Of a stretch of DNA of 64,000 nucleotides, positions 3,738-44,809 are shown one piece after another (positions within the stretch are counted from its first letter, which is position 1; the number at the start of each line of letters is the position of its first letter). The stretch covers positions 390,612 to 454,611 of the forward strand of contig JBAYVA010000001.1 of the NCBI GenBank assembly GCA_041674805.1. Direction: 5' to 3'. The stretch is from Candidatus Magasanikiibacteriota bacterium. Its GTDB lineage: Bacteria; Patescibacteriota; Patescibacteriia; Magasanikbacterales; UBA922. The position numbers and the translations under genes were made by a program. The notes under the pieces are model-generated. The model was not told the origin of the DNA, did no database searches, and worked only from the letters and a program-made list of their open reading frames with translations.

Positions 3738-4148
3738 TTATTTTTCTATTGTATTGAAATCTACAAATTCATCCTCAGAAATACCATGACTTTCCAAATA
3801 CTTAGATACAAGATATCTAAGATTTCCTTGAACATTTTCTAATGGTGAATTTGAGTTACTCTTTAAATTATTTTTTATGTCATTTAAAGTACTCTGAGCT
3901 AAAGCCCTATCAGCGTTATTACCAAAATCAGATACAATTTTATCTATTTTAAAAACAACCTCAGCACATTTGATTTTTCTCTCTTCATTATTAAGTCCTG
4001 ACAAATACAACTCTTCAACTCCCTCCATACAAAATAGAAATGCATCACTTATAAATTCAAGTCTTTGATTTTTTACAGTTTCATTGTCATTACCAGCTTC
4101 CAAACCAGGCACAAAATAACCTGACAAATCATTTTTTCTCTCTGTCAT
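3738..4148 (-). CDS. hypothetical protein (136 aa)
   Basis: Intact ORF; no family recognised. Confidence 0.4.
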   Translation of the reverse strand: MTERKNDLSGYFVPGLEAGNDNETVKNQRLEFISDAFLFCMEGVEELYLSGLNNEERKIKCAEVVFKIDKIVSDFGNNADRALAQSTLNDIKNNLKSNSNSPLENVQGNLRYLVSKYLESHGISEDEFVDFNTIEK

Positions 4149-4165: not shown

Positions 4166-5125
4166 TTAAAAGACAATTTCTTGCACTTCAGTCTCCAGAT
4201 TTATCTTAAATTTATTATACACTTTTTCTTTTACTTCATCAATAAGATTTTTGACATCTTCAGCAGTAGCCCCACCCAAATTCACAATAAAATTGGCATG
4301 TTTTTCACTAACTTGAGCCTTGCCTATCTGAAGTCCTTTGCACCCAGCGTTATCTACCAACCATCCAGCAGATATTACACCTTTATCCAAAAATTCTTGT
4401 GGAATATCCTGGCTTTTGGCTTTTGGCTTTTGGCTTTTGACTACTACATTTTTGAAAATACAACCTGAAGAAGCAAAACCTTGTGGCTGTGTAGAATTTC
4501 TATATTGAATATTTTCAAGAGCCTTCTTCATCAAGTCCTTACTTTCTTCTGTACTCTTTTCTAGTTTCAACCAAACTCGCAAAATTACGTCATTATTAAG
4601 TTTGAAACTACTTTCACGATAAGCAAATCCACATTCTTCATTTGTCAATTCCAAAATTTCACCTTGACGATAGACTTCTACCCTTTCGATATTACCTTTC
4701 ATGTCACCTCCCATAGCACCAGCATTACCACGCACAGCTCCACCGATTGTCCCAGGCACACCAATCCCCCATTCAAATCCAGTAAGCCCAAGTCTGACAC
4801 TTTCACGAGCTACAGCTACAGTGATACAGCCAGCATCTACTTGCAAAATATCATTTTCTAATTGTTTTATTTCTGAACTAGCTACTTTTATCACCACTGC
4901 GTCTAATTCCTTATCAGTACAAAGCACATTACTTCCACCACCAAGAATAACATATTCCACATTTTCTTCACGCAAAAAATTCAAAACTTCTACAAGTTTA
5001 GAGTTATTATCAATTGTGATGAAATATTTAGCAGGACCACCAAGCTTGAAAGTAGTATGCTTGGACATTGGCTCGTTTAATTTTACTTTGCCAAATTTTT
5101 TGAGAGTTGTGTAGATTGTATCCAT
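4166..5125 (-). CDS. murB: UDP-N-acetylenolpyruvoylglucosamine reductase MurB
   Basis: 319 aa; FAD-binding N-terminal domain (TFKLGGPAKYFI...ILGGGSNVL) and MurB C-terminal domain (GFASSGCIFKN...AGWLVDNAGCKGLQIGKAQVSEKHANFIVN). Carries an internal (GGCTTTT)x4 tract at 4411-4439. Confidence 0.85.
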   Translation of the reverse strand: MDTIYTTLKKFGKVKLNEPMSKHTTFKLGGPAKYFITIDNNSKLVEVLNFLREENVEYVILGGGSNVLCTDKELDAVVIKVASSEIKQLENDILQVDAGCITVAVARESVRLGLTGFEWGIGVPGTIGGAVRGNAGAMGGDMKGNIERVEVYRQGEILELTNEECGFAYRESSFKLNNDVILRVWLKLEKSTEESKDLMKKALENIQYRNSTQPQGFASSGCIFKNVVVKSQKPKAKSQDIPQEFLDKGVISAGWLVDNAGCKGLQIGKAQVSEKHANFIVNLGGATAEDVKNLIDEVKEKVYNKFKINLETEVQEIVF

Positions 5126-5185
5126 AAGATTATATCATCCTAAATCAACAGGAAGGGATCCCTGCCTGCCGGCAGGCAGGTTTTT
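5126..5185 (-). promoter_or_regulatory. murB 5' leader: 10-bp perfect GC palindrome CCTGCCTGCC/GGCAGGCAGG (5161-5180), then GATCCC and AGGATGA ahead of the ATG
   Basis: Read directly from the sequence. On the plus strand the hairpin is followed by TTTTTAAAA, so it could also terminate a plus-strand transcript. Motif shared with the mraY and GT2 leaders. Confidence 0.35.
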
Positions 5186-5251: not shown

Positions 5252-6544
5252 TTATGTTAAAGATGCTTGATCAAAATCAATCAAATAAACTCGTGGACAA
5301 CGCGTCAAATCAGGTTTACCATTTTCATCTTTATAAAATAATAAAACAAAATTTCCACCATGATAATCATGACCATGTTCTATACCCAATTTTTTTATAC
5401 ATTTTCTTATTTTTTTAATCTTTTCTTCAATTTCTACTCTGAAAATAGTAGCAACACCACCACCAATGAGATCTTCTTCTTCATAATCACCAAAAGAAGG
5501 CCCATCTATTACTCCAGAAAATACGTCAACTATTTTTGATTTACTATTCAAAGTTGAAATTTTTACAATAGGTTCGATAGGTACATAGTCAAAACCTTGT
5601 CTTTCCCAAAAAGTATAAGATTCATAAGCTTTTTTCCAAGCCATAAGTGATTGAACAGGAATTTTTCTAAGTATGACTTTATTTTTCAAAGATTCTTCTT
5701 CCTTACCAAGTACTTTGTCAAAAAGAAAAGTATCAGGACCTGTCTTTTTTTGTTTTGTTCTTACTCGAAAATCTTCTTTATATAAACCAACAGAAGTCCA
5801 TTCTGGATGTTCTCTTATAATTTCTAATTGTTGTTGTTCTGACAAAAATTGAATCATTTTTGAATATTTAAAACGTGCATAAATAATATCACTTAATAAA
5901 CCTTTTCTGATAATATCTGCTAACAATTCCTGTAATTCTAATTGTTGTTGTTCTGAAGTATATTGAATCATACTTGCAAATTCAAAACGTACATATGAAT
6001 CATTAATTAATAAACTTTTTCTGATAACACTTGCTAACAATTCCTGTAATTCTAATTGTTGTTGTTCTGAAGTATATTGAATCATACTTGCAGAATTAAA
6101 ACGTACATATGAATCATTAATTAATAAACCTTTTCTGATAATATCTGCTAACAATTCCTGTAATTCTAATTGTTGTTCATGAGGTAAATTTTTAATCATC
6201 TTTGCAAACTCAAGACATACATATATATTACGATCTGACAAACCTTTTTTAACAATTTCTATTGATAATTTTTGTGATTCTAATTGTTGTTTATGAGGTA
6301 AATTTTGGATCATCTTTGCAGATTCAATACATATAATGCTATTAGAATCTGGTAAACCTGCCTTCACAATACCAATCAATTTTCCTTTATTAAATTTATC
6401 AACACTCTCTCGATACCTATCCACATCTTCCTGAGTAAAATCACTACCAGGCAAACTGTACATAGCACGAATAACAGGATCAACATCCTGTTCTTTTGAT
6501 TCTAAAGTTTCTAATTTTTTATCTAAAATTATTGTTTCAGACAT
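5252..6544 (-). CDS. HEAT/armadillo-like 38-aa tandem-repeat protein with C-terminal RIO/Kdo-type atypical kinase-like domain
   Basis: N-terminal half holds five ~38-aa repeats (…SEQQQLELQELLADIIRKGLL(I/S)...YVRF..ASMIQYT…). C-terminus ...GIEHGHDYHGGNFVLLF...PRVYLIDFDQA resembles the HGD...N catalytic loop and IDF(P/D)QA metal-binding motif of RIO / Kdo (WaaP/KdkA) kinases. Confidence 0.55.
   Translation of the reverse strand: MSETIILDKKLETLESKEQDVDPVIRAMYSLPGSDFTQEDVDRYRESVDKFNKGKLIGIVKAGLPDSNSIICIESAKMIQNLPHKQQLESQKLSIEIVKKGLSDRNIYVCLEFAKMIKNLPHEQQLELQELLADIIRKGLLINDSYVRFNSASMIQYTSEQQQLELQELLASVIRKSLLINDSYVRFEFASMIQYTSEQQQLELQELLADIIRKGLLSDIIYARFKYSKMIQFLSEQQQLEIIREHPEWTSVGLYKEDFRVRTKQKKTGPDTFLFDKVLGKEEESLKNKVILRKIPVQSLMAWKKAYESYTFWERQGFDYVPIEPIVKISTLNSKSKIVDVFSGVIDGPSFGDYEEEDLIGGGVATIFRVEIEEKIKKIRKCIKKLGIEHGHDYHGGNFVLLFYKDENGKPDLTRCPRVYLIDFDQASLT
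5816..6300. repeat. ~114-bp tandem direct repeats (about 5 copies; the two central copies 5931-6044 and 6045-6158 are near-identical) inside the CDS
   Basis: Unit CTGTAATTCTAATTGTTGTTGTTCTGAAGTATATTGAATCATACTTGCA...CTGCTAACAATTC is visible directly in the sequence; it encodes the 38-aa protein repeats. Confidence 0.85.
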
Positions 6545-6609
6545 AAATGCAACTTGATTATTTTACACTTTTACACTATAATTTTGCTATATCATCAATA
6601 AATTAGATT

Positions 6610-8571
6610 ATGCAAAAATTACTAAACAAAAATATTATCTACGTCACCCGTGACATCGAACGTGCCACTGGTTTTGACTTGTCTAATCCTAACTATTATA
6701 TTATCTCAAATAGTAGCACATTTGCCAAGCAGATAGCCAAAGACAAAAACAACATTTTGCTAATTGAAGCTGAAAAACAAATAGATACTTGGGAACTTTT
6801 GGAAAAATCTGAAAGCAAAAATTTTATAAACAAAATTATTGATCCCCAAATATTGGTTTTCAAACCAACTACACAAATAGAAAAAATTTGTGCTGAAAAT
6901 AATTGGAAACTATTAAACCCTAGTGCTACTTTGGCAAACAAAGTAGAACAAAAAATTTCTAGTGTAAATTGGTTAGATGAAGACAGTAAATATTTTCCTG
7001 ATGCCAAAATAAATACTTGTGAAAATATTGAATTCAAAAATGAAAAGTTTATTTTACAATATAACCAATCTCACACTGGCAGTGGCACAATGCTGATTGA
7101 ATCAAAAAAACAATTAGATGAAATAAAAAATAAATTTCCTAAACGTGATTGCAAAACCAGCAGATTTGTTGAAGGTATTTTGCTTACCAACAACAATGTT
7201 GTCACAGACAAAGAAACAATGCTTGGTAATATAAATTATCAAATCACAGGACTTGAACCTTTTACCAAAAACAAATTTGCCACGATTGGCAATGATTGGG
7301 GTCTAGCACACAAATTATTAAATGAAAATTTGTTAAAACAATACCAAGAAATTGTAGAAGCCATTGGCAAAAGATTGAGAACAGAAAATTGGCGTGGACT
7401 TTTTGGAGTAGATATTATTTGGGAAACAAAAACCAACAAATTATATTTGATAGAAATCAATGCTCGCCAACCAGCTAGTACAACTTTTGAATCACAATTG
7501 CAAATGCAAAATAAAAAATCAGAAAATGACATCACGACATTTGAAGCTCATATACTAGCCTTAATCGGTGAAAGTTTGAAAAATAAAAAATTGATTGCAA
7601 TTACTGATGGTGCCCAAATAATTTTACGCAAATCACAAGAAAATATTGATACTGAAAATATAAAATCAAAATTGGAAAAAGAAAATTTCAATGTTATCAA
7701 ATACGACAATGACAAAGAAAATTCAGACTTACTTAGAATCCAAAGTAATTCTTCAATTATGAAAGAACACGAAAAATTTAACGAAAACGGCACAAAAATT
7801 GTAAGAGGAATGAAGAATGAGGAAAGAGGAATGGTTTCGAAAATGATTGAACATTATTTAAATCTAAAAGTTGGAAATACGACAGTAACCTGCCCTTACT
7901 TCAATAATCGAAGATCACAAATCCGTGGTGCTCTCGCTGTCCTCATCGGCAAAGGTAGTCCTGAAAGTATTGAAGAAGAACTACAAATAATTTCTCTCAA
8001 AGAAAAAATTGACTTGAACAACTTGCCAGCTGAAAAAATAAAAGAATTTTTGGTAAATAATAATCTTGGGGTTGACTGCTCTGGTTTCGTTTATCACATT
8101 CTAGATGCTTTAGTGCAAGATAAAAAAAATAAAAAACTAAAACAAATTATTCACTTTCCTCTCGCCAAAAGTGTGGTAAGAAAAATGATTGCCAAATTAC
8201 GTCCAGCTGAAAATTGTGGTGTCACGACTCTGGCTCACGAAATTAATAGTAAAAAAATAAATTTGAAAGAAGTGGAAGCCAATGATTTCATTATTTTTCT
8301 TGGCAGTGGACCAAAACAAGATTACAATCATATCATGTTTGTCGAAAGTGTCACTAACAAAACTATAAACTATATTCATGCGTACAAGTGGCCAAGCGAT
8401 GGACAATACAACCATGGTGTCAGACGTGGCCAAATTGAAATCATTGACGAAAACAAAAATATTCTCGAACAAAAGTGGCTTGAACAAGAAAAAACAGCTG
8501 AAAACAATTGGACTTGGTTGCAAGCCAAAAGTGCGAATGAAATATTTGTAGGAAGACTGAAAAACATTTAA
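6610..8571 (+). CDS. ATP-grasp ligase fused to a C-terminal NlpC/P60 (CHAP-like) cysteine peptidase/amidase domain
   Basis: 653 aa. N-terminal ~300 aa: ATP-grasp hallmarks (QSHTGSGTMLIES..., RGLFGVDIIWETKTNKLYLIEINARQPAS with the E-x-N catalytic loop). C-terminal ~170 aa: LGVDCSGFVYHIL ... NHIMFVESV ... YIHAY = Cys-His-His(polar) order of NlpC/P60 papain-like peptidases. Confidence 0.6.
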   Translation: MQKLLNKNIIYVTRDIERATGFDLSNPNYYIISNSSTFAKQIAKDKNNILLIEAEKQIDTWELLEKSESKNFINKIIDPQILVFKPTTQIEKICAENNWKLLNPSATLANKVEQKISSVNWLDEDSKYFPDAKINTCENIEFKNEKFILQYNQSHTGSGTMLIESKKQLDEIKNKFPKRDCKTSRFVEGILLTNNNVVTDKETMLGNINYQITGLEPFTKNKFATIGNDWGLAHKLLNENLLKQYQEIVEAIGKRLRTENWRGLFGVDIIWETKTNKLYLIEINARQPASTTFESQLQMQNKKSENDITTFEAHILALIGESLKNKKLIAITDGAQIILRKSQENIDTENIKSKLEKENFNVIKYDNDKENSDLLRIQSNSSIMKEHEKFNENGTKIVRGMKNEERGMVSKMIEHYLNLKVGNTTVTCPYFNNRRSQIRGALAVLIGKGSPESIEEELQIISLKEKIDLNNLPAEKIKEFLVNNNLGVDCSGFVYHILDALVQDKKNKKLKQIIHFPLAKSVVRKMIAKLRPAENCGVTTLAHEINSKKINLKEVEANDFIIFLGSGPKQDYNHIMFVESVTNKTINYIHAYKWPSDGQYNHGVRRGQIEIIDENKNILEQKWLEQEKTAENNWTWLQAKSANEIFVGRLKNI

Positions 8572-8599
8572 CAAATATCAAAAAACAGTCTTACCAAAT

Positions 8600-11500
8600 T
8601 TGGTATTATACACACAATATTTAATGCAATCTCTTATGCTAGAAATACCACGTTATTCTCCTTTTGACACTCCCAAAAGTAATGATGAGCTATATATAGA
8701 AATAGAAAATATTCTAAATAATCTAGAAGCAACTCTGGCTATTTTTGAATTGGAACAAGACAAAACCAAAGCCAGACAAGTAGGAATTTTAATTTACGAA
8801 CTAAAAAATCAACAAACTTTAATCAATGCCGAAAATCACAAAAAAGTTGGAAAATTGACTAAGCGAGAAAAAATAGAAAATTTACTTTCACAAGCCAGAG
8901 AGATTTTGCAAGGCAATGAATCATCCCTGTCAAGATTTGATCTAGAAAGAGAAAGTGAAATATCGCACATTCCCCTACCACCCGAAGAACTAGAAGCTAA
9001 ATATTTTAGCAAAGAAGATATTGCCGTTTCAAATGCTCTACTTGCTTTCAACATCACTGAACTTTTTTCAGAAGAAGAATTTGAAACACGAATTATTATT
9101 GATTCGAAACAAACTGGCAAAAATGACAATCACAAAATTCAAGAAGCGGTAGAACTAGTCACAGATTTTTTGATTGATAATCAGACCCTTAATTATTTTT
9201 GTGAAAATGCTGAATTTGCTACCACTCAAACAGCAATCAACATGCCACCAGATTTACTTTGGATAAAAGAAAAGAATCCCGCAGTTTGGCAAGCTATCAA
9301 TACTTTAGTCAAAAGTAAAAAAGGTCCAGAATTTTTGAGACTACTCGCTGGTCAACCGACCCACAATACAGCAGTAGAAGAAACTGATCAATATGATCTC
9401 ATGGCAAAAGAGTCTCTAGATGCTTCTCCCAATATTTTGAGTCTAGCCATAAATATATCAAGACAAAGATTGAAAAGTAGTGCAAGACAAGATTTGAGTG
9501 AAGCTGAAAAAAATGTTTTGGTGAATCTTTATGGTGCAGATTTTCTAAAAGACGCTGAAGAAGAAAGAGCCCGAGATATTATTTTTACACAATTACTTGC
9601 TCAGATTTTGAATGAAGATAAAAATGAAAAAAATAATGAGTCAATAATTCAACTTATTGATATGTTAGAATGGAGAGATATACAAAAAATGTTAAAAAAT
9701 AATGATTTGAAAAATTTTGAAAGTATTCTAAAACGTATAGCAGAATACCTACCAAATATGACAGACGAACAAGTGAAAATGGTGTTAGAAAAAATGAATA
9801 CTATCACAAAAGAAGCATTAGCTGAACCTGATAAAATACAAAAAAGAAAAGATGACGCACAAAAAAGAAAGGAAAAATTAGAACAAGACCTAGAAGAAGC
9901 ACAAAAAAATGGTGATAAAAAAATTCTAATGTTTTTAACATTAGGATTCTTTGGTTCAAGAGAGAGACGAATACCAGCAACTACAGAAAAAATTGAAGAT
10001 GTAGGAATAAAATTTTTAGAAGAAAGAAAAAATTATCAAACATCTCTAAAATTGTTATTCCTTCTATTAAAGCACAACGGGAATATTGCCAAAGAATTAA
10101 CAAAAAAAGAAGATTGGGAAAAAAGAAACAAAGAATTCGCAGATTTTTGTATCCAAATATTATATCTTTACTCTAAATTACAAAAATATCCTTCATATCG
10201 TGAAGATACCAAAGATGGTAATATAAACAATTTTGATGGTTTTGTAACAAGTTATATAAAAGTAACTACTGAATCTAAATTACCTACAGATAAAGAATTA
10301 AATTTAAATGGAGCTTCACTTGTTGGTGCAGATTTCAGAAAAGCAGACTTATCCAAAATAAATTTGGAAGGTGCTGATGTTACAAATGCTAATTTTGAAG
10401 GTGCAGATTTTAGCAAGATGACTAACAAACAAATAGAAGGAGCAAAGTTTAATAGAGAAGATGATAATATTCCTAAGTGGATCAAATATGGTTTAGATGA
10501 AGAAGGAAAGTTTTCAAAACAAAAACTACAAGAAACTATTAGAGAGAAATCTAAAACAGAAACTATAGACTTACAAGATGCTAAACTGATGGGACTAGAT
10601 TTATCAAATTTAAATTTATCAAATGCTAATTTTAGAAACTCAAATTTAAGTAGAGTAATATTTACAAATACAATTTTGATGGGTGCTGACTTTAGAGGTG
10701 CTCATATAGAAAGTTTACAATTAGCAAACACAAATCTAGAAGGTGCCAAATTTGATAAAGAAACCATTAACCCATTTAAAAAAACAAAACTAGCCAACGA
10801 ATCTAACTATAGACCAGAAAGTGTACCGAAATGGATCCAGCAGGCATTAGATACAGAAGGAAAATTTTCAAAAAAAATATTAGCTGATAATATCAAAAAA
10901 GATAAAAAGGGAGAAATAAAATTAAACAATGCAGATCTATCAGGATTATCATTGAATGGCGTAGATTTTTCTGGAAGAGAAATCACTGGTACAAAATTTA
11001 TCGGTACAAATCTAGAAGAATCCAAATGGAATAATTGTATATTAACTAATGTTGATTTTAGTGATGCAAACTTATACGAGGCTGATTTCAGAAGCACAAG
11101 CTTCAAAAATGTTAATCTTGAAGGTGCAAGATTTGAAACAATAAAAATAAAAGATTCAAATAATATTCCACCTTGGATACGATATGGTTTGGATAATCCA
11201 GGACGTTCAGGAAAATATTCCAAAAAAGACTTAATAGAATATATAAAAAGACATAGCACTCTAAATCTGAGAAATGCTGACCTGCCAGGGATTGATTTAA
11301 GTAAATTTGAATTAAATGGTGCATTATTCAGCGGTGCAAATTTAGAAGGAGCAATTTTTACTAATTGTTTATTGAAAAAAACAGAATTTGCATCTGCACA
11401 ATTAGAAAATGCTAGCTTCAGAGGTTCAATTCTAGAAGAATCCGACTTTGCCAATGCAAATTTACGTGGAGCAAATTTTAGTGGTGCTGACTTAAAAGAT

Positions 11501-11659
11501 GTAAAAAACTTAGATGGAGCCTATACCCCCGTACGCGTTGGTATTCAAAGAGAAACTGAATATTTTAATTCAAATTTAGTTGGTGCAAACTTCTCAAATG
11601 CAAAAAATATACCACCACACATCCAAGAACGATTAGACGAAAACGGTATATACCACTAA
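8600..11659 (+). CDS. large modular pentapeptide-repeat protein (1019 aa)
   Basis: C-terminal ~480 aa are dense pentapeptide repeats (ASLVGADFRKADLSKINLEGADVTNANFEGADFSKM...). They are organised in three super-modules that each begin with IP(K/P)WI(K/Q/R)YGLD..GKFSKK.L....I. N-terminal ~560 aa are helical with no recognised domain. Confidence 0.75.
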   Translation: MVLYTQYLMQSLMLEIPRYSPFDTPKSNDELYIEIENILNNLEATLAIFELEQDKTKARQVGILIYELKNQQTLINAENHKKVGKLTKREKIENLLSQAREILQGNESSLSRFDLERESEISHIPLPPEELEAKYFSKEDIAVSNALLAFNITELFSEEEFETRIIIDSKQTGKNDNHKIQEAVELVTDFLIDNQTLNYFCENAEFATTQTAINMPPDLLWIKEKNPAVWQAINTLVKSKKGPEFLRLLAGQPTHNTAVEETDQYDLMAKESLDASPNILSLAINISRQRLKSSARQDLSEAEKNVLVNLYGADFLKDAEEERARDIIFTQLLAQILNEDKNEKNNESIIQLIDMLEWRDIQKMLKNNDLKNFESILKRIAEYLPNMTDEQVKMVLEKMNTITKEALAEPDKIQKRKDDAQKRKEKLEQDLEEAQKNGDKKILMFLTLGFFGSRERRIPATTEKIEDVGIKFLEERKNYQTSLKLLFLLLKHNGNIAKELTKKEDWEKRNKEFADFCIQILYLYSKLQKYPSYREDTKDGNINNFDGFVTSYIKVTTESKLPTDKELNLNGASLVGADFRKADLSKINLEGADVTNANFEGADFSKMTNKQIEGAKFNREDDNIPKWIKYGLDEEGKFSKQKLQETIREKSKTETIDLQDAKLMGLDLSNLNLSNANFRNSNLSRVIFTNTILMGADFRGAHIESLQLANTNLEGAKFDKETINPFKKTKLANESNYRPESVPKWIQQALDTEGKFSKKILADNIKKDKKGEIKLNNADLSGLSLNGVDFSGREITGTKFIGTNLEESKWNNCILTNVDFSDANLYEADFRSTSFKNVNLEGARFETIKIKDSNNIPPWIRYGLDNPGRSGKYSKKDLIEYIKRHSTLNLRNADLPGIDLSKFELNGALFSGANLEGAIFTNCLLKKTEFASAQLENASFRGSILEESDFANANLRGANFSGADLKDVKNLDGAYTPVRVGIQRETEYFNSNLVGANFSNAKNIPPHIQERLDENGIYH

Positions 11660-11670: not shown

Positions 11671-11698
11671 AAAAAGCCTTGTCTAAAGGCTTTTTTTG
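11671..11698 (+). terminator. rho-independent terminator after the pentapeptide-repeat gene
   Basis: AAAGCCTT-gtcta-AAGGCTTT followed by TTTTGTG, read directly. Confidence 0.7.
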
Positions 11699-11778: not shown

Positions 11779-11825
11779 AAGATCCCTCGTCGTATTCTCG
11801 ACTCAGGATGACGAATACCCTTATG
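11779..11825 (+). promoter_or_regulatory. mraY 5' leader: GATCCC - short CG hairpin - CTCAGGATGA ahead of the start
   Basis: aaaGATCCCtcgtcgtattctcgactcAGGATGAcgaataccctt ATG. Same architecture as the murB and GT2 leaders (see findings). Confidence 0.35.
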
Positions 11826-12953
11826 CTAATACCTTTAGAATCACTAAATCTACTCAGACAGGCCATTTTCTTTGGTCTGGTTTCTTGTGTTTTAGCTTTT
11901 CTTTGGGCTCCACTTTTAACCAAATTAATGTACAAATACAAGCTGACTAGATGTCCGGAATATGATGCTACTCTAGCCATGGGAGCAAGAAAAAGCAAAA
12001 TAGGTGTGCCAGTCATGGGAGGTCTTCTCGTCATTGTGACTGTTGCTGTCATCACAATTGCTTTCAACTGGGAAAGAAAATTCACTTGGGTACCAATTGG
12101 CGTCATGCTTCTCGCTGCCCTACTTGGTGGTATTGATGACGTCATGAATATCTACGGACACAAAAGACGCAGTCGCAAACTCAAACAAATTTTGACACTT
12201 ATCAAAGTCCACAAAGATTGGAAAATGCGTGTCTGGTATGCTCTCACTTTACCTTGGTCAATCTTCAAACGTACTTCTACTTTTCTTTCACGTCATCCTG
12301 GCAAAGGTATTCACGTTCATGAAAAATTATTATTGCAATTCTTGGCTGGAACCATTACCGCTTGGTGGATTTATTTCAAACTTGGTGAAAGCTGGCGCGA
12401 AATCCACATTCCTTTTGATGGCTTCATCAATATTGGTTGGTGGATCATTCCTCTGATTATCTTCTTCGTCATGTTTACTGCCAATGCGGTCAATGTCGCC
12501 GATGGTATGGATGGACTTGCAGGAGGATCTCTGATTATCACTTTTGCTGTCCTCACTATTCTCAGTTGGTTGGCAGGTTTCAAAGAAATGGCTTTTCTAA
12601 ACGCCACCACTGTTGGTGCGCTACTTACTTATACTTATTTCAATATCAAACCAGCTCGTTTCCAGATGGGCGATGTTGGCTCACTCGGGCTAGGGTCTTT
12701 GCTGGCTATCAATACCATAGTTCTCAATCAAATGTTACTTTTGCCTTTATTTGGTTTTATTTTTTATGTAGAAATTTTAAGTGTTGTCATCCAAATTTTT
12801 GGTCGCCAACTCTTGGGCAGAAGAATTTTCAAGATGGCACCAATACATTATCACTTCGAAATGCGTGGCTGGAATGAAGAAAAGACTGTGATGCGTTTCT
12901 GGCTTATTCATGCGGCGTTTGTGTTGCTTGGACTTTGGATATCACTTTATTAA
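11808..12953 (+). CDS. mraY: phospho-N-acetylmuramoyl-pentapeptide transferase MraY
   Basis: NAVNVADGMDGLAGG, PARFQMGDVGSLGLGSLLA, APIHYHFE and about 10 TM helices. The start may be the ATG at 11823 (MLIPLES...) rather than 11808. Local GC is higher than in neighbouring genes. Confidence 0.9.
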   Translation: MTNTLMLIPLESLNLLRQAIFFGLVSCVLAFLWAPLLTKLMYKYKLTRCPEYDATLAMGARKSKIGVPVMGGLLVIVTVAVITIAFNWERKFTWVPIGVMLLAALLGGIDDVMNIYGHKRRSRKLKQILTLIKVHKDWKMRVWYALTLPWSIFKRTSTFLSRHPGKGIHVHEKLLLQFLAGTITAWWIYFKLGESWREIHIPFDGFINIGWWIIPLIIFFVMFTANAVNVADGMDGLAGGSLIITFAVLTILSWLAGFKEMAFLNATTVGALLTYTYFNIKPARFQMGDVGSLGLGSLLAINTIVLNQMLLLPLFGFIFYVEILSVVIQIFGRQLLGRRIFKMAPIHYHFEMRGWNEEKTVMRFWLIHAAFVLLGLWISLY

Positions 12954-12993
12954 GCAAAATAAGTTTATAAGCAGAATAGGCAGAATAACTATT

Positions 12994-13293
12994 ATGAAAA
13001 TAAAAAAATCTTTTTTCAATATTTTTATTATATTATCAATTGTTATTTTTGTTTTTATTGGATACGAAATGATTAGAGTTAAAAATAGTGATCATAATGT
13101 GTTTCAAAGATGCCGATATAGATTTTTTTATGAACATTGGCAATGTATATCAGAGAAATTTAAAGAAAAAAATCATTGCAATATAATACAAAATAAAAAT
13201 TTTTGTTCAATAAACCCTGGTTGCTCTTGGCTATCTTGTTCTGCTTATGGTTACAGTGTATGTGATAAAAAAGGCACTCCAATACCCTGTTAA
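12994..13293 (+). CDS. small secreted/membrane-anchored cysteine-rich protein (~99 aa, 8 Cys)
   Basis: MKIKKSFFNIFIILSIVIFVFIGYEMI (signal anchor), then RCRY..QCIS..HCNI..FCSI..GCSW..SCSA..VCDK..IPC. Start chosen at the internal Met because the track ORF (12910) overlaps the mraY 3' end. Confidence 0.45.
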   Translation: MKIKKSFFNIFIILSIVIFVFIGYEMIRVKNSDHNVFQRCRYRFFYEHWQCISEKFKEKNHCNIIQNKNFCSINPGCSWLSCSAYGYSVCDKKGTPIPC

Positions 13294-13305: not shown

Positions 13306-13971
13306 ATGAACAAGTATTTAAAATGGAACGAACAAACAATCCAAGATTTTTCTCCCGAAAACATCAATAGTCTTTACAACCAAGGCTATGTTTTTACTAG
13401 AGTGGAAAAAGGTATGATGAACCAAACCAGAAGTCTAAGAATTGATTTGTCTAAATTTGAATTGTCATCTGAAAATAGAAGAGTCTTGCGCAAAGCAGAA
13501 AATTTAAAACTTGAAATAAAAGATTTACCGACGTCAGATTATCATTGGACTCTTGGCAAATTGGCCAAAGATTTTTATGATACCAAATTTGGCGATGGAG
13601 TATTTTCAGCCAACAAAGTAAAAGAGATCCTAACAACACAACAAAATTTCAACAAACTTTTTGTTTACAAAGTTGCAGAAAAAAAAATTGGTTACACTAT
13701 TTGTTTTGAATCTGCAGAAATGTTGCATTATAGCTATCCATTCTATAACCTAGAACCTAACACCCAAAACCCAATACCTAGTCTTGGCATGTCGATGATG
13801 CTGAGTGCAATTGTCTACGCACAAGAAAATAACAAAAAATATATTTATCTTGGTTCAGCTCAACGTCCGACAGATATTTATAAATTGCAATTCAAAGGAT
13901 TAGAGTGGTTTGATGGTGAGAAATGGAGTGAAGATTTGGAGGAGTTGAAAAGTATTTTGAAAGCAAAATAA
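13306..13971 (+). CDS. Ate1/Bpt-family (arginyl/leucyl-tRNA--protein transferase-like, GNAT fold) homologue lacking the CxxC zinc-binding cysteines
   Basis: NQGYVFTRVEKGMMNQTRSLRIDLSKFELSSENRRVLRK matches the ATE_N signature region (…GWRRSGKY.YKP.MNQTCCPQYTIR…F.PSKS.+KVLKK) with Cys replaced. 221 aa, about Bpt size. FemX-like is an alternative given its position between mraY and the Mur ligase. Confidence 0.45.
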   Translation: MNKYLKWNEQTIQDFSPENINSLYNQGYVFTRVEKGMMNQTRSLRIDLSKFELSSENRRVLRKAENLKLEIKDLPTSDYHWTLGKLAKDFYDTKFGDGVFSANKVKEILTTQQNFNKLFVYKVAEKKIGYTICFESAEMLHYSYPFYNLEPNTQNPIPSLGMSMMLSAIVYAQENNKKYIYLGSAQRPTDIYKLQFKGLEWFDGEKWSEDLEELKSILKAK

Positions 13972-13995: not shown

Positions 13996-14742
13996 ATGAA
14001 TGAAGAAAACACAACTACTAATAAAACATTCAGAATATATAATAGCGTAATAATATTTGATATTCTTTGGTTGTCAACAACATTAATAATTACACTGTTT
14101 TTATTTTCCTCAACATTTAATATAACAAGTATTTTTTTAGGTATTTTTTCTTTAGCCTTTACTATATTCATGATTATAAAAATAATAAAAGATGCCTCAT
14201 ATAAAATAATTTTAGATAATAATATATTAAAAGAATACAATTATTCTGCACCTACTTTAAGAAGTATAGAAATAAAAGATATAACACATATTTCTCAAGT
14301 AGAGTACTCTGTATTAGAAGAAATAAAACAAGATAAAAACAATTCACCTTTTATACAAATAATCAATCAAATATTATCAAAAATTTTTACATTATTACTT
14401 AAAAAGTCTACAGAGCATACAGACATGCCTATGTTTGTACTTCAAGGTAATTTCAAAATCTCAAGATTTCCATCAGTTCCTGTTAATATAAAATTAATAC
14501 AAAGACTCATTGAATTGAATCCATCTATTATAGTAGACAAAAAATTAAGAAGGTGGTTACCAAAAAAACTTCAAAAGCAATTAAACATGCACCCTACAAA
14601 ACTAGAATATACATTTGAAATTATTGGAAAAATACTAATATCCATACTAATTGTCTTAATAATATTATGGGCAATTCCACTAACTTTTTTTTTACTAGAT
14701 AAAATTGGAATTTTAAATACTATACAAAATTTGATAAAATAG
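13996..14742 (+). CDS. hypothetical integral membrane protein (very AT-rich)
   Basis: 248 aa, N- and C-terminal TM helices; no recognised family. Confidence 0.4.
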   Translation: MNEENTTTNKTFRIYNSVIIFDILWLSTTLIITLFLFSSTFNITSIFLGIFSLAFTIFMIIKIIKDASYKIILDNNILKEYNYSAPTLRSIEIKDITHISQVEYSVLEEIKQDKNNSPFIQIINQILSKIFTLLLKKSTEHTDMPMFVLQGNFKISRFPSVPVNIKLIQRLIELNPSIIVDKKLRRWLPKKLQKQLNMHPTKLEYTFEIIGKILISILIVLIILWAIPLTFFLLDKIGILNTIQNLIK

Positions 14743-14776: not shown

Positions 14777-16180
14777 ATGCAAAAACAAAAACATATACAT
14801 TTCATCGGCATCTGCGGAGTAGCAATGAGTGCCCTCGCAATCGCTTTCCACAAACGCGGATATACAGTTACTGGAAGCGATAAAGGCTTCTATCCTCCAG
14901 TTTCAACTTATCTAAAAGATGCAGGTGTACCTTATTATCCAGGTTGGCACGTTGAAAAAATGACGAAAAACGGCGATCCAGATTTGATAATCGTCGGCAA
15001 TGTTGCAGGCTCAAACAATCCCGAATGGATGTACACCCAAGAAAAAAAACTAAACTACAAATCTTATCCAGAAGCTATTGCTGAATTTTTTGTCAAAGAA
15101 AATTCTATTGTCTGCGCGGGAACATTTGGTAAGACTACGACTACTTCCCTACTCGCTTGGATTTTGCAAGAAAATGATTTTGATCCAAGCTATATGTTTG
15201 GTGGTATTAGTCTAAACGATATGCCAGCAGCCAAATTGACTGACTCAAAATATTCTGTGCTTGAAGGTGATGAATACAAAAGTGCTCGTTGGGATGATGG
15301 TGCCAAATTTTTTCACTACTCACCTACTCACCTACTTTTGACTTCTGTAGTTTGGGATCATGCTGATGTCTATCCAACAGAACAATCTTATTTCACAGCT
15401 TTTGAAAAACTACTCAGCAACTTACCAGAATCTGGACTGCTCGTAACTAGCGAAAGAGTAAAAAAAGAAATGTTAGATTTTGCTAAATGCAAAATTATCA
15501 CTTACGGCAAAGATGCAAAAAATGATTATGTTTACCAAAATGTGACAGTAAACAAAACAGAAATAAAATTTGAAATAAAATATCAAGACCAAATTTTCCA
15601 AATCAATTCTCCTTTGCTTGGTGAATATTTGGTTGATAATATGACAGCTACTTTTGCCATGGCACACCAACTTGGTCTAGCACCTGACAAAATTATTCAA
15701 ACTACAAATACTTACAAAAATGTCAAAAGACGCTTGGAAAAAAGACTGGCTCTAGATATTACAGTCTTAGACGACATAGCTCATTCTCCACAAAAAGCTT
15801 CTTCTGTTTTGCAAACTCTAAAAAATATTTATTATGATGGCAAAGTAATAGCCATCTTTGAACCAAACTCAGGCAACAGACAAAAAGAAGCAATACCAGG
15901 CTATGATAACAAATTTTCTGATGCTGATTTAGTCATTATTCCCAAACTGACAGTAATCAAACAAACACCTGAAGAAGAAAAAGCTATTGAAGGAGAAGAA
16001 CTAACTGAAATAATTCGTAAGACACAAAAAAATGTAAAATATATTGATAATGATAATGAACTTGTTGATTATGTTGTCAAAATTGCTAAACCAAATGATG
16101 TGATTGCTTTCTTAGGTAGTCATGGCTTTCGTAATATGATTGAAGCAGTAGTAAAAGGCTTGAAAGGCTTAAAAAGCTAG
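14777..16180 (+). CDS. Mur ligase, MurC/Mpl family (sequence is closest to the Mpl type; by context the UDP-MurNAc--L-Ala ligase)
   Basis: IHFIGICGVAMSALAIAFHKRGYTVTGSDKGFYPPVST..., GTFGKTTTTSLLAWIL, VLEGDEYKSARWDDGAKFFHY.P..L.L..V.WDHADVY. The DEY..A.(F/W)D and YPP.ST motifs are Mpl-like rather than canonical MurC. Confidence 0.75.
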   Translation: MQKQKHIHFIGICGVAMSALAIAFHKRGYTVTGSDKGFYPPVSTYLKDAGVPYYPGWHVEKMTKNGDPDLIIVGNVAGSNNPEWMYTQEKKLNYKSYPEAIAEFFVKENSIVCAGTFGKTTTTSLLAWILQENDFDPSYMFGGISLNDMPAAKLTDSKYSVLEGDEYKSARWDDGAKFFHYSPTHLLLTSVVWDHADVYPTEQSYFTAFEKLLSNLPESGLLVTSERVKKEMLDFAKCKIITYGKDAKNDYVYQNVTVNKTEIKFEIKYQDQIFQINSPLLGEYLVDNMTATFAMAHQLGLAPDKIIQTTNTYKNVKRRLEKRLALDITVLDDIAHSPQKASSVLQTLKNIYYDGKVIAIFEPNSGNRQKEAIPGYDNKFSDADLVIIPKLTVIKQTPEEEKAIEGEELTEIIRKTQKNVKYIDNDNELVDYVVKIAKPNDVIAFLGSHGFRNMIEAVVKGLKGLKS

Positions 16181-16266: not shown

Positions 16267-16821
16267 ATGAAAATTCCAAAAAACGCCAAAAAAGTTTTCA
16301 CCGGAGTTCTCTTCGATGTTTATCAATGGCCTCAAAAAATGTTTGATGGTACTTTTAAGACTTTTGAAAAACTATCAAGAAAACATAGTATACAAGTACT
16401 AGCAGTTACTACAGACAAAAAAATTATTGTTTTGAAAGAACAACATCCAGATATCAAACCTTTTTATGGTGTGATTGGTGGAGGACAAGAAGGCAAAGAA
16501 ACTCCACTACAAACTGCCAAAAGAGAACTACAAGAAGAAACAGGCTATACTGCAAAAAAATGGGAATTGATTGATAAGGAAACTCCTTCTAGCAAATTGG
16601 ACTGGACACTATACACATATCTAGCAAAAGATGCTGAAAAAACTCATGAACAAAAACTAGATTCAGGTGAAAAAGTAGAAGTCATGAAAGTAAGTTTTAC
16701 TGAGTTCATGAAATATGCTACTAATCACAATTTCATGTCTACTGGTCTTAGCTTTTATCTTCTCAAATTGAACTATCACAAAAAACTTGGGGAATTCAAG
16801 AAAAAACTTTTAAATAAATAA
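16267..16821 (+). CDS. NUDIX hydrolase
   Basis: Nudix box GGGQEGKETPLQTAKRELQEETGY. Confidence 0.75.
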   Translation: MKIPKNAKKVFTGVLFDVYQWPQKMFDGTFKTFEKLSRKHSIQVLAVTTDKKIIVLKEQHPDIKPFYGVIGGGQEGKETPLQTAKRELQEETGYTAKKWELIDKETPSSKLDWTLYTYLAKDAEKTHEQKLDSGEKVEVMKVSFTEFMKYATNHNFMSTGLSFYLLKLNYHKKLGEFKKKLLNK

Positions 16822-17215: not shown

Positions 17216-18115
17216 ATGAAAACCCCCCAACCAACATTCACCGAGCTAAACAAAACACTCGGTATCGACGTCTACCTCAAACGTGAAGACGAACACAAGT
17301 ATTCTTCACACAAAGGTCGTTCTATTCCACTCATGGTCAAAAAGTATAACAAAGAAGAAGACATCACAAACTTTGTAATTTCTTCTTCCGGCAATGCAGC
17401 CATCGCCGCTATACACACTATCCAAGCTCACAACAAAAATAATGATAAAAATTTAACATTAAAAATTTTTGTTGGCAAAAATATTGATAAACAAAAATTG
17501 AAAGTTTTGCAAGCAATTATCGAAGACAAAAATATTTCTCTTGAGCAAGTAGAAAGACCAAAACAAACAGCTTTTGCTCTCGACAAAGAAAATAAAGCCA
17601 AAAATTTACGACAATCCACCGATGATAATGCCCTTACAGGTTACTATGAACTAGCCGAGGAATTAAACAATATCCCAAACTTGCAAGCAATACTTGTACC
17701 AACATCTTCTGGCACTACAGCCCAAGGACTTGGTATGGCTTTTGACACAATACCCGCTTCCAAATTTGGTGGTCAACAACATCCCCAAATTCATATTGTA
17801 CAAACAACTAGTTGTCACCCGATTGCTGAAGAATTTGATAAAAAGTTTGAAAACACAGAGACATCCCTAGCAAGTGCTATCGTCGACAACATTGCTCACC
17901 GCAAAGAAAAAGTCATAGAACAAATAAAAAAATCCAGCGGATCTGGCTGGATAGTGACTGACGAAGATTTGAAAAATGTAGTGAATATGCTAGAAGAAAA
18001 CTGCAAAATAAAAATTTCTTATAATTCTGCTTTGTCAGTTGCCGGGCTTATCAAAGCAATGAATAACGGCTGGAAATTTGAGGGAGCGGTGGTGTGTTTG
18101 ATTACAGGAATGTAA
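17216..18115 (+). CDS. PLP-dependent enzyme, tryptophan-synthase-beta (fold type II) superfamily; ACC deaminase / D-cysteine desulfhydrase-like
   Basis: LKREDEHKYSSHKGRS (PLP-lysine region, cf. FGGNKTRKL), ISSSGNAAIAAI, glycine-rich PTSSGTTAQGLGMAF. Confidence 0.5.
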   Translation: MKTPQPTFTELNKTLGIDVYLKREDEHKYSSHKGRSIPLMVKKYNKEEDITNFVISSSGNAAIAAIHTIQAHNKNNDKNLTLKIFVGKNIDKQKLKVLQAIIEDKNISLEQVERPKQTAFALDKENKAKNLRQSTDDNALTGYYELAEELNNIPNLQAILVPTSSGTTAQGLGMAFDTIPASKFGGQQHPQIHIVQTTSCHPIAEEFDKKFENTETSLASAIVDNIAHRKEKVIEQIKKSSGSGWIVTDEDLKNVVNMLEENCKIKISYNSALSVAGLIKAMNNGWKFEGAVVCLITGM

Positions 18116-18880: not shown

Positions 18881-20566
18881 ATGGAAAAAACTTTAGAAGA
18901 AATTTTATTAGAAATAATATCTTACCATCCCAAAACTAAGGATGATTTTAATGATGCTCGCCGTCGAATTTGTGGTAAATTGAAAACAGTCCAACCTTCC
19001 AACATGAAGCTTTTTACAGCTTACCAGAATTTGTTAAAAAAGAAAAGTATTACCATTGACAAAAACTTAGAATTACTTCTACGCAAAGCCGATATTCGCT
19101 CAATGTCTGGTGTTGCTATTATCACTTCTCTCATCAAACCTTACACTTGCCCTGGACAATGTATCTACTGCCCGACTGAAGTAAAAATGCCAAAAAGTTA
19201 CATTGCTACTGAACCAGCGGCTGCCCGTGCGCTTGCTCTAGCTTTTAGTCCTTACAGACAAATGCAAATGCGCCTAGACATGCTCGAAAAAACTGGTCAT
19301 CCAACTGACAAAATAGAATATATTTTGAAAGGCGGAACTTGGAATGCTTATCCTCTTCGTTACCAATATTGGTTTATTTTAGAATCTTTCAAAGCTTGCA
19401 ATGATCTGACAAGGAAAACACCAACCAAAGCTACGTTGGAAAAAGACTGGAAAGAAAAAACTCTGGAAGATTTACAAAATGCTTTGAAAATTGAACAAGA
19501 GTACAATGACAAAAAAGCTAAACACAAAATCATTGGCCTGACTCTCGAAACTCGTCCCGACGCTATTTCCCCAAAAACAATTTGGCATATGCGAGAACAA
19601 GGTTGTACTCGTATTGAACTTGGTCTCCAAGCTCCAGATGACAAAATTCTTGAACTAGTAAAACGTGGCCACACTGTCGAACAATTTCGCCAAGCTATTT
19701 TACTTTTGCGCCAAGCTGGTTTCAAAGTAGATTTGCATTTCATGCCAGATTTGCCAGGTACGACCGCCAAACACGATGTGGAGATGTACGCCAGTTTGTT
19801 TACTGACGAAGGTCTAAAACCTGACATGGTGAAAATTTATCCGTGTACTGTTATCAAAAGTGCCGAGCTATATGGCTGGTTTGAATCTGGTAAATACAAA
19901 CCTTATGCTAGCCAAGATTTGTTCAACGCTATACTTGAAATGAAAAAGTTAACTCCTTATTACTGCCGTATTTCTCGTCTTATTCGTGACATTCCTAGCA
20001 ACGAAATCGAAGGTGGAAATGCTATTACCAATCTTCGTGAAGCTCTAGAAAAAGAATTACACAAGCAAGGTGACTATTGCAAATGTTTACGTTGTCGCGA
20101 AGTCGGACATTCCGAAAAAATTCACAAAATAAAAGCAGACAAATTAATACCCCAACTTTTTGTCGAAGAATTTCAAACTCGTGGTGGACGAGAATTTTTC
20201 TTGAGTTTGGAAGATGAAGAACGTCGTATAGTCTTTGCTTTCTTGCGTCTTCGTCTACCAGAATATAATGACCAAATAAAAAAATCTGAAATACTTGAAA
20301 AATACCTTGGCCTTGGTGATTTGAAAAAATTAGCTTACGTCCGCGAACTTCATACTTACGGACAACTCGTCAACGTCGGTGACAAAAACAAGTCAGCCTC
20401 ACAACACAAAGGAATGGGAACAAAACTAGTCAAAGAAGCTGACAAAATTGCTAGAGAAAATGGTTACACAAAAATTGCTGTAATTTCTGGTGTTGGTGTA
20501 CGATCTTATTATCGAAAATTTGGCTATAAAAAAATTGGCACATATATGGCCAAAAATCTAAAATAG
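18881..20566 (+). CDS. Elp3-type radical-SAM + GNAT tRNA uridine(34) carboxymethyl/acetyl-transferase homologue
   Basis: 561 aa; radical-SAM cluster CPGQCIYCP, and a C-terminal GNAT domain HKGMGTKLVKEADKIARENGYTKIAVISGVGVRSYYRKFGYKKIGTYMAK that closely matches the Elp3 C-terminus (QHQG.G..L.EEAERIA....KIAVISGVGTR.YYRK.GY...GPYM.K). Confidence 0.8.
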   Translation: MEKTLEEILLEIISYHPKTKDDFNDARRRICGKLKTVQPSNMKLFTAYQNLLKKKSITIDKNLELLLRKADIRSMSGVAIITSLIKPYTCPGQCIYCPTEVKMPKSYIATEPAAARALALAFSPYRQMQMRLDMLEKTGHPTDKIEYILKGGTWNAYPLRYQYWFILESFKACNDLTRKTPTKATLEKDWKEKTLEDLQNALKIEQEYNDKKAKHKIIGLTLETRPDAISPKTIWHMREQGCTRIELGLQAPDDKILELVKRGHTVEQFRQAILLLRQAGFKVDLHFMPDLPGTTAKHDVEMYASLFTDEGLKPDMVKIYPCTVIKSAELYGWFESGKYKPYASQDLFNAILEMKKLTPYYCRISRLIRDIPSNEIEGGNAITNLREALEKELHKQGDYCKCLRCREVGHSEKIHKIKADKLIPQLFVEEFQTRGGREFFLSLEDEERRIVFAFLRLRLPEYNDQIKKSEILEKYLGLGDLKKLAYVRELHTYGQLVNVGDKNKSASQHKGMGTKLVKEADKIARENGYTKIAVISGVGVRSYYRKFGYKKIGTYMAKNLK

Positions 20567-36958: not shown

Positions 36959-37165
36959 ATAACACTGATTACATTGATTTTAAAAAATTACACTGAAATT
37001 AAATTGATAAACTTTTCTTTAAAATATTTACTTTTAATTAATAACTTTTTTATACTCTTATATATTATCATTGATATTTTTTTATCTACACCAATTATTT
37101 TTGTAATCAAATTATTCTTTTTAAACATAATCTGCGAAATCATCAAAAATCAGTGTAATCAGTGC

Positions 37166-38269: not shown

Positions 38270-38274
38270 ATTGA

Positions 38275-39123: not shown

Positions 39124-39127
39124 AAAT

Positions 39128-40123: not shown

Positions 40124-40124
40124 A

Positions 40125-41204: not shown

Positions 41205-41328
41205 AATATATATAAATAGACAATTTTTAAATATACAAATTCCAAACAAATTACAATATACAATACAAAATTTTGTAATTTATAATTTGTGTATTATTTG
41301 GAATTTGTATATTTAATATTGTTTATTT

Positions 41329-42177: not shown

Positions 42178-42222
42178 AGGACAATTCATCCTGAGCCGAC
42201 GAAGTACGGCGTGAGGATCTTT
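42178..42222 (-). promoter_or_regulatory. GT2 5' leader: GATCC - GCCG/CGGC hairpin - CTCAGGATGA
   Basis: Minus strand: aaaGATCCtcacGCCGtacttcgtCGGCtcAGGATGAattgtcct ATG. Confidence 0.35.
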
Positions 42223-42318
42223 CTTAAGATAAAATCTCGTAATTAAAATACACAGACAATTATATAAAGTCTTTCTTATATTATCAATTCTAGCCTATTT
42301 TAAACTAAAAATCAAGCA

Positions 42319-42346
42319 CAAAAAAACAACTCTTTTTTGAGTTGTT
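42319..42346 (-). terminator. rho-independent terminator after the 42366-42770 gene
   Basis: Minus strand: AACAACTC-aaaaaa-GAGTTGTT followed by TTTTTGTG. Confidence 0.65.
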
Positions 42347-42365
42347 CTTTTCGAGAAGATGTTTA

Positions 42366-42770: not shown

Positions 42771-42787
42771 ATAGAATTATTTAAAAT

Positions 42788-43936: not shown

Positions 43937-43945
43937 ATTTTAAAA

Positions 43946-44806: not shown

Positions 44807-44809
44807 AAT

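Follow-up and report, generated by a model that had tools for sequence, protein, structure and literature searches.

A stretch of 64,000 nucleotides (nt) from Candidatus Magasanikiibacteriota bacterium (assembly GCA_041674805.1, contig JBAYVA010000001.1, positions 390,612-454,611; here called the window, whose own coordinates are used throughout) contains a Patescibacteria operon for peptidoglycan precursors (mur operon) that has gained unrelated genes in the lineage of the window. At the core of this operon lies a gene for a 653-amino-acid (aa) protein in which an ATP-grasp ligase is fused to an NlpC/P60-like cysteine amidase. In the mur operon of Patescibacteria, the ATP-grasp/P60 pair forms an obligate two-component enzyme, encoded by two adjacent genes in most relatives; it is uncharacterised and has so far been found only in Patescibacteria-labelled genomes. 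We propose, with a probability of about 0.55, that the ATP-grasp/P60 protein alone is the functional unit and works in the cytoplasm as a ligase/amidase couple whose target is the peptide of a peptidoglycan precursor, and we would place much lower confidence in any particular bond for this couple. The fusion gene and its parts are as follows.

6610-8571, plus strand: open reading frame (ORF) of the ATP-grasp ligase fused to the NlpC/P60-like cysteine amidase, 653 aa
6610-7809, plus strand: ATP-grasp half, residues 1-400
7822-8568, plus strand: NlpC/P60-like half, residues 405-653
6554-6582, plus strand: promoter-like site TTGATT-17-TATAAT, sigma-70-like, facing the fusion gene from inside the 65-bp divergent spacer, a consensus match only

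More than 1300 homologues of the fusion protein were found, and in a scan of one genome per species, relatives of the ligase-peptidase turned up in at least 369 species representatives; among these loci, every title that names a lineage names a Patescibacteria lineage. The ATP-grasp half occurs alone (~400 aa), with a NUDIX domain (~550 aa) or with a C-terminal P60 domain (~660 aa). Stand-alone P60 versions of 240-290 aa gave 233 matches, all of whose lineage-bearing source names are Magasanikbacteria or Parcubacteria, and they keep the catalytic triad as C86, H170 and H186. For 80 loci from species other than that of the window, gene neighbourhoods were compared over flanks of up to 10 kb per side. 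The ATP-grasp and P60 parts are found together at all loci that are not cut by a contig end, as split genes in 65 cases and as a fusion in 13 (the window included), and the split genes are adjacent, with a median gap of about 12 bp. Members are named "ATP-grasp domain-containing protein" and "C40 family peptidase" by NCBI. Peptidoglycan ATP-grasp ligases, P60 amidases and bifunctional synthetase/amidase enzymes are already known kinds of protein; no prior description of the ATP-grasp/NlpC-P60 pair in Patescibacteria mur operons was found in the searchable literature, and there is no curated family that describes the pair.

Clustering of the flanking ORFs revealed a conserved gene order, in which hpf and murB on the opposite strand are followed by the ATP-grasp gene, the P60 gene, mraY, an ATE/Bpt-like gene and a MurC/Mpl-like gene. 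Genes for NUDIX and fold-type-II pyridoxal-phosphate (PLP) proteins come after this conserved core in many loci. The following operon members were recognized in the window.

4166-5125, minus strand: murB, UDP-N-acetylmuramate dehydrogenase (NCBIfam NF010480, 289 bits, above the 259-bit cutoff)
11808-12953, plus strand: mraY-like phospho-MurNAc-pentapeptide transferase (TIGR00445, 177 bits, below the 192-bit cutoff; Pfam Glycos_transf_4)
13306-13971, plus strand: ATE/Bpt-like (arginyl/leucyl-tRNA-protein-transferase-like) protein, 221 aa (NCBIfam arginyltransferase, E=1.4e-13, below cutoff; Pfam ATE_C, E=0.0012)
14777-16180, plus strand: MurC/Mpl-like Mur ligase (TIGR01082 murC, 263 bits, and TIGR01081 mpl, 252 bits, both below cutoff; three Mur-ligase Pfam domains)
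16267-16821, plus strand: NudE-like NUDIX hydrolase, an operon member in 15 loci
17216-18115, plus strand: fold-type-II PLP enzyme, threonine-synthase/dehydratase-like, 299 aa, below all curated cutoffs, an operon member in 42 loci

Upstream neighbours were counted in 74 loci and downstream neighbours in 76. Divergent murB is found upstream of the ligase gene in 39 of the 74 and is its immediate neighbour in 35, and mraY lies within four genes downstream of the pair in 60 of the 76. In 41 of these 76 loci, mraY is the very next gene on the same strand, separated from the pair by about 40 bp in the median. The ATE-like gene (52/76) and the murC-like gene (44/76) also recur downstream of the pair. 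Three relatives illustrate the arrangement around fused forms: L003, the closest relative from another species (ligase-peptidase 95% identical to that of the window), L001 (77%) and L004 (69%). L001 has the order murB, fusion gene and mraY without any intervening gene; in L004, murB stands directly beside the fusion gene and one small unrelated gene precedes mraY; in L003, a kinase-like gene is present (see below) and the fusion gene is followed directly by mraY.

Two routes to peptidoglycan side chains are known, namely ATP-grasp ligases for D-amino acids and tRNA-dependent GNAT-fold ligases for L-amino acids (PMC2922099, PMC4155827). The mur operon holds one candidate of each route, together with a PLP enzyme as a possible source of an amino acid. 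The ATE/Bpt-like protein may be a non-Fem type of peptidoglycan side-chain transferase that depends on aminoacyl-tRNA, and the fold-type-II PLP enzyme could be the supplier of an unusual amino acid or a D-amino acid for the wall.

At eight loci (L060, L061, L064, L065, L067, L071, L074 and L075), a C-terminal NUDIX domain is fused to the ATP-grasp half, giving proteins of 542-588 aa, and two loci carry both a fused and a stand-alone NUDIX. NUDIX enzymes act on nucleoside-diphosphate-X compounds. The possibility that the fused domain is simply the stand-alone NUDIX of the operon was rejected, with 25-47% identity between them over 45-146 aa, mostly in the NUDIX-box region. Because the two are not the same gene, the fusion is only a weak hint of a nucleotide-linked substrate.

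An initial annotation of this DNA, made by a model from the letters alone, had described the product as an ATP-grasp ligase joined to a papain-like Cys-His-His amidase. This architecture holds, as both catalytic signatures are intact and invariant in fused and split forms. The invariant positions of the fused form were called from an alignment of 34 full-length fused homologues (A1). The three-domain fold of the ATP-grasp superfamily is present, and the catalytic Mg/ATP motif E282-x-N284-x-R286 (codons 7453-7467), with the acidic D268 upstream of it, is invariant. So are K85, K115, Q150, the loop H155-x-G-x-G-T160 and, in the N-domain, Y11-x-x-R14-D15-x-x-R18, which belongs to a motif of the family's own, YVTRDIERA (YxxRDxxRA in the alignment). 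In the P60 half, the triad C490 (8077-8079), H574 (8329-8331) and H590 (8377-8379) is invariant as well, and the papain-like core is preceded by an N-terminal extension in which P-Y-x-N-N (429-433) and G-K-G (447-449) are invariant.

The C-terminal half shows the alpha+beta papain-like fold of NlpC/P60 proteins (MEROPS C40, PF00877). In the AlphaFold model of the fusion protein (pLDDT 90.7, pTM 0.63), C490 opens a helix (490-506), and H574 and H590 are on neighbouring strands (572-582 and 585-592), so that the catalytic residues stand as in NlpC/P60 enzymes, with the Cys at the N-terminus of a helix and the His and a third polar residue on adjacent strands. The DCSG motif of this half aligns with that of LytE. 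Sequence families were less informative: Pfam reported ATP-grasp_3 at E=1.9e-9 and CHAP only marginally, the NCBIfam scan of the fusion protein gave nothing specific, and NLPC_P60 did not match the domain of the window at E<=0.01, with matches in 31 of 40 stand-alone and 13 of 34 fused relatives (best E ~1e-5). By structure comparison, the nearest folds of the ligase half are PurK, PurT, BacD and RizA, which ligate amines, some of them nucleotide-linked, with small carboxylates or amino acids, and those of the P60 half are MepS and a gamma-D-Glu-L-diamino-acid endopeptidase. The fusion protein is taken to be cytoplasmic, because direct reading showed no signal peptide or hydrophobic N-terminus in either the ligase or the peptidase sequence.

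It is on the basis of the operon context, the nearest ligase and peptidase folds and the lack of a visible signal peptide that we propose a couple working on a cytoplasmic precursor. ATP-grasp enzymes join a carboxylate to an amine via an acyl-phosphate; in peptidoglycan synthesis, Ddl produces the terminal dipeptide D-Ala-D-Ala and AslA/Aslfm attaches D-Asp. The ATP-grasp half would activate a carboxylate as acyl-phosphate and join it to an amine, and the resulting amide bond would belong to, or extend from, the peptide of a cytoplasmic precursor, either a UDP-MurNAc-peptide or a building block. The P60 half, with its Cys490-His574-His590 triad, would hydrolyse an amide bond of the same molecule, which may serve to edit or trim wrong products or to free a building block. 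Together, the two activities would set the composition of the stem peptide or of the side chain before the precursor is loaded onto lipid by MraY.

Several observations weigh against this proposal. The gene neighbourhood is the only link of the pair to peptidoglycan, and in 35 of the 76 loci another gene stands between the pair and mraY. The protein has no profile similarity to canonical Patescibacteria Ddl (hhalign probability 0.2%), and neither single-sequence nor profile searches with the fusion protein returned a PDB sequence match. Most ATP-grasp enzymes have a strand lysine before the glycine-rich loop; in FILQYNQSHTGSGT, as read by eye, the invariant Gln150 appears in place of this lysine, and ATP use by the ligase half is assumed. 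NlpC/P60 enzymes are normally extracellular. Their superfamily also includes acyltransferases (LRAT; PMC10318531), so a hydrolase role is not necessary.

Among characterized enzymes, glutathionylspermidine synthetase/amidase (GspSA) of E. coli (PDB 2IO7) and trypanothione synthetase-amidase resemble the fusion protein in that an ATP-dependent carboxylate-amine ligase and a papain-like Cys-His amidase of the NlpC/P60-CHAP superfamily are carried on one polypeptide. In GspSA, the amidase can undo the bond made by the ligase (PMC10318531). Unlike GspSA, the fusion protein does not show an N-terminal CHAP amidase followed by a C-terminal domain of the Gsp-synthetase type. AslA/Aslfm (Lactococcus, Enterococcus faecium) is an ATP-grasp D-aspartate ligase that adds a side-chain residue to the precursor via an acyl-phosphate, and its gene shares an operon with the enzyme that supplies its amino acid (PMC4155827, PMC2922099). 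The window operon, with its PLP enzyme and its gene resembling tRNA-dependent transferases, may be comparable to the Asl operon, a likeness to Asl drawn from the literature; Asl differs from the fusion protein in having no peptidase partner.

At the sequence level, the fusion protein is distant from its structural neighbours: identity to BacD, RizA, BL00235, PurK and PurT is 10-14%, without a match even by profile, and the YVTRDIERA motif and the Gln at the presumed strand-lysine position set the family apart from L-amino-acid ligases, PurK and PurT. Sequence and profile similarity to Dala_Dala_lig_N/C was lacking, and the fusion protein was rejected as a Ddl by sequence. The P60 half shares its fold, its Cys-His-His triad and the Cys at a helix N-terminus in G-x-DCSG with MepS/Spr, CwlO, LytE and the YkfC-like 2evr. 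In contrast to C40 endopeptidases, it is cytoplasmic according to our reading of the sequence and always coupled to an ATP-grasp ligase, and it carries at its N-terminus an additional conserved subdomain (~80 residues, containing the PYFNN and GKG motifs) as well as an insertion of ~35 residues between Cys and His, the spacing being 84 compared to ~51 in MepS.

Of the other functions considered for the pair, a Ddl with the logic of VanX/Aad survives best, although we still regard it as unlikely. The ATP-grasp half would here make a free dipeptide or depsipeptide for MurF, and the P60 half would destroy unwanted dipeptide and thereby let only the correct one into the precursor. In Ddl/VanA with VanX/Aad, likewise, the stem peptide is supplied by an ATP-grasp ligase, and a D,D-dipeptidase clears away the product that is not wanted (PMC4155827). 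A tblastn search with E. coli DdlB and the Patescibacteria Ddl of locus L082 covered the window and 92 loci; within these stretches, no canonical ddl was detected near the pair. It is rather improbable that the pair is an amidotransferase comparable to MurT/GatD or CarA/CarB, in which the P60 half as glutaminase/amidase would feed ammonia to the ATP-grasp half for amidation of a stem carboxylate, such as D-iGlu to D-iGln. We know of no NlpC/P60 domain that works as a glutaminase, an ammonia channel would be hypothetical (model pTM 0.63), and such an activity would leave the conserved extension with its PYFNN and GKG motifs unexplained.

We hold a comparably low opinion of salvage of host muropeptides, where the P60 half would trim imported peptides in the manner of YkfC/LdcA and the ATP-grasp half would re-ligate or extend them for a MurC/Mpl-like ligase. 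This function would agree with the nearly equal scores of the neighbouring Mur ligase as MurC and as Mpl (263 vs 252 bits) and with the best structural matches of the P60 half, MepS (also an LD-carboxypeptidase) and a gamma-D-Glu-L-diamino-acid endopeptidase; moreover, Patescibacteria have small genomes and are regarded as living on other bacteria as symbionts or parasites (PMC8939145). On the other side, no transporter or other recycling gene is conserved in the neighbourhood, and the Mur ligase falls below both curated cutoffs, so that an assignment as Mpl is not possible. Tailing of proteins or peptides apart from peptidoglycan, with amino acids added by the ATP-grasp half and removed by the P60 half in a RimK/TTL/graspetide-like manner, is very unlikely, even with weak Pfam matches in some of the 34 members (TTL in two, YheC/D-type ATP-grasp in six) and with ATP-grasp systems for peptides that are made on ribosomes and modified after translation (RiPPs) existing in the candidate phyla radiation (PMC8939145).

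Going further than the cytoplasmic ligase/amidase couple, it is conceivable, and we suggest it only tentatively, that the pair performs a Patescibacteria-specific precursor step without counterpart in model bacteria, with the HEAT-repeat kinase-like family described below as a possible accessory regulator or scaffold. The pair might, for example, install and proofread an unusual residue of the stem peptide or side chain, or perform a new kind of amidation that depends on a papain fold. If so, these bacteria would have a chemically distinct cell wall. Reduced Patescibacteria genomes still keep peptidoglycan synthesis. Their cell walls are essentially uncharacterised, and a lack of reliable information on them has been noted (PMC8871954). 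Situated between murB and mraY in hundreds of species, the pair is a candidate for an unrecognised step of precursor synthesis, editing or salvage. If it is one, metabolic reconstructions would score Patescibacteria wall synthesis differently, a lineage-specific wall chemistry would be relevant to the episymbiotic lifestyle, and the NlpC/P60 family would extend to a cytoplasmic, ligase-coupled role.

In the window, the fusion gene is flanked by two genes that are foreign to the conserved gene order. These genes and the signals beside them are listed here.

5252-6544, minus strand: ORF of a HEAT-repeat protein with a C-terminal minimal protein-kinase-like domain, 430 aa, between murB and the ligase gene
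5810-6382, minus strand: HEAT-like repeat region (tandem array and profile matches)
5255-5737, minus strand: kinase-like domain, approximately residues 270-430 (~160 residues)
5161-5180, between murB and the kinase-like gene: perfect 20-bp palindrome (CCTGCCTGCCGGCAGGCAGG), GC-rich in a genome of ~30% GC, with T5 after it
8600-11659, plus strand: pentapeptide-repeat protein, 1019 aa from TTG 8600 or 1011 aa from ATG 8624, between the ligase gene and mraY
11673-11697, plus strand: hairpin (AAAGCCTT / AAGGCTTT) followed by a T-run, 14 nt past the stop codon of the pentapeptide gene, seen by direct reading and missed by the scanner

In the initial annotation, these two genes and the fusion gene had been read as a single add/remove/phosphorylate module with the pentapeptide protein as its candidate substrate. 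The three ORFs exist as described (430 aa on the minus strand, 653 aa and 1019 aa on the plus strand), as does the divergent spacer of 65 bp. The module itself is contradicted, on the initial annotation's own terms, by the distribution of the genes, since the trio does not co-occur in other species: using tblastn, we found the kinase-like gene in 1 of the 80 loci (L003) and the pentapeptide gene in none. The full trio recurs only on L081 (ENA contig k141_1563332), which is 99.3-99.8% identical to the window and comes from the same species, and the kinase-like gene adjoins the ligase gene only in L003 and L081.

Further examination of the intergenic regions revealed signals at the edges of both genes. 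The palindrome at 5161-5180 looks like a terminator and lies at the murB-side edge of the inserted kinase-like gene. Similarly, the hairpin at 11673-11697 looks like an intrinsic terminator that parts the inserted pentapeptide gene from mraY; the terminator scanner demands three G-C pairs. Based on the tblastn absence, the synteny of L001, L003 and L004, these hairpins and the recurrence on L081 only, we conclude that the kinase-like and pentapeptide genes are separate, recent, lineage-specific insertions into the mur operon. The two neighbours carry their own transcription signals and are not dedicated partners of the pair.

The module of three genes is therefore hardly credible, even though they are adjacent both here and in the 99%-identical genome and no terminator was detected between the ligase and pentapeptide genes, which may be co-transcribed. 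Against it stand the absence of the pentapeptide gene from 80 of 80 and of the kinase-like gene from 79 of 80 loci of other species, the conservation of the pair without either gene in at least 369 species, the occurrence of kinase-like homologues in at least eight unrelated contexts, and the presence of other orphan genes interleaved in the window operon, because of which adjacency carries little weight. Three such orphan ORFs are found at 3738-4148, 12910-13293 and 13996-14742. All of them were also called on L081, none has a homologue in any of the 80 related loci, and the two that were scanned against families (3738-4148 and 13996-14742) gave no match. The lineage of the window seems to accumulate orphan genes inside its mur operon. 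In a lineage where orphan genes enter so freely among conserved operon genes, mere adjacency says little about function.

The 38-aa HEAT-like repeats and the kinase-like fold that had been assigned to the 430-aa protein were both borne out. A tandem array at 5822-6333 codes for its repeats (unit of 114 bp or 38 aa, 4.5 copies, 83-88% identical according to TRF), and the family profile matches designed ARM, alphaRep and HEAT structures with E values of 1e-24 to 1e-9. The number of repeats varies between near-identical genomes, the protein having 430 aa in the window vs 354 aa on L081 (exactly 2 x 38 aa less), and the L003 orthologue has 517 aa. The C-terminal domain has a bilobal kinase fold, in which H390-G-H392...N398 is the equivalent of the catalytic loop and I-D423-F-D425-Q corresponds to the RIO-like metal-binding motif IDxxQ. 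Invariant N398, D423 and D425 provide the metal-binding Asn and the Asp of DFG/IDxxQ. The catalytic Asp and the beta-3 Lys appear to be missing: H392 is invariant where RIO has Asp, Arg293 is invariant at the presumed beta-3 position (assigned by eye), and the family consensus reads H-G-H-x-H-D-x-N. The correspondence with the RIO motifs was read by eye.

The protein thus resembles RIO, Bud32 and WaaP in its compact kinase fold of ~160 residues, its H-G-x...N loop and an I-D-F-x-Q akin to IDxxQ, and it departs from them in having His392 at the position of the catalytic-base Asp and Arg293 at that of the presumed beta-3 Lys, in the fusion of the kinase-like domain to variable HEAT repeats, and in the lack of any Pfam or PDB sequence match. 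Judged from these residues, it would be an atypical, possibly non-phosphorylating, kinase-fold protein. The search with the C-terminal domain alone also gave no PDB match, and the family profile matched HEAT/ARM proteins only. Only 41 homologues of the protein were found, all of them uncharacterised.

Twelve independent contexts of the kinase-like family were sampled. In four of them, the homologue lies within two genes of peptidoglycan genes, and the other eight are unrelated. Besides the window lineage (5252-6544, beside murB and the ATP-grasp/P60 pair), these four comprise L082 (6001-7704), with ddl two genes away; L084 (6001-7722), where the gene belongs to an mraZ-rsmH-ftsI cluster and has ftsI on one side and a Mur ligase on the other; and L088 (4453-5592), where it is divergent from a murC-like gene and beside yceG/mltG. 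Four wall contexts out of 12 correspond to a p value of ~0.02, given a roughly estimated chance rate of 5-10%. This hints at a loose link of the kinase-like family to wall synthesis, independent of the ATP-grasp/P60 pair, and is no support for the trio.

The pentapeptide gene had been placed 29 nt downstream of the fusion gene. We measured a gap of 28 nt from TTG 8600, which becomes 52 nt if translation starts at ATG 8624; the TTG start is doubtful, because the gene callers on L081 begin the gene at the first ATG (8624). The pentapeptide repeats and the three IP(K/P)WI...GKFSKK modules of the initial annotation were recovered. Pfam detected Pentapeptide (PF00805) at E=1.4e-51 over seven stretches and Pentapeptide_4 at E=1.1e-33. 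The repeats occupy the last ~450 residues and are interrupted by the IP(K/P)WI...GKFSKK linkers (residues 634, 752 and 866); a fourth, degenerate linker is found at 1014. They are preceded by a helical N-terminal domain of ~560 aa (8624-10309), which extends to about residue 570. This domain is nearly orphan, with nine relatives among 1.84 billion representative proteins. Eight of these are distinct from the query; they are 406-1267 aa long, all have pentapeptide repeats, and the two with lineage names come from Magasanikbacteria and Peregrinibacteria. A role of the three proteins in anti-phage defence was considered and rejected, as none of them has a PADLOC match and the NCBIfam HalA match covers the pentapeptide-repeat region only.

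Some other genes of the window are of interest for tRNA modification and the envelope. Downstream of the mur operon, at 18881-20566, lies a full-length bacterial Elp3 homologue of the radical-SAM/GNAT type involved in tRNA modification (TIGR01211, E=2e-156, above cutoff), and an Elp3 gene recurs downstream of the mur operon in 10 loci. A 433-aa protein of the EPSP-synthase family is encoded at 33207-34508 and is taken to be MurA on size and family only. After this MurA candidate, a long block of envelope-sugar genes occupies the minus strand from 35873 to 48922, comprising a nucleotidyl transferase, several GT2 glycosyltransferases, rmlD-like and dehydratase-like genes, a PMT_2-like membrane glycosyltransferase and an asparaginase (39128-40123).

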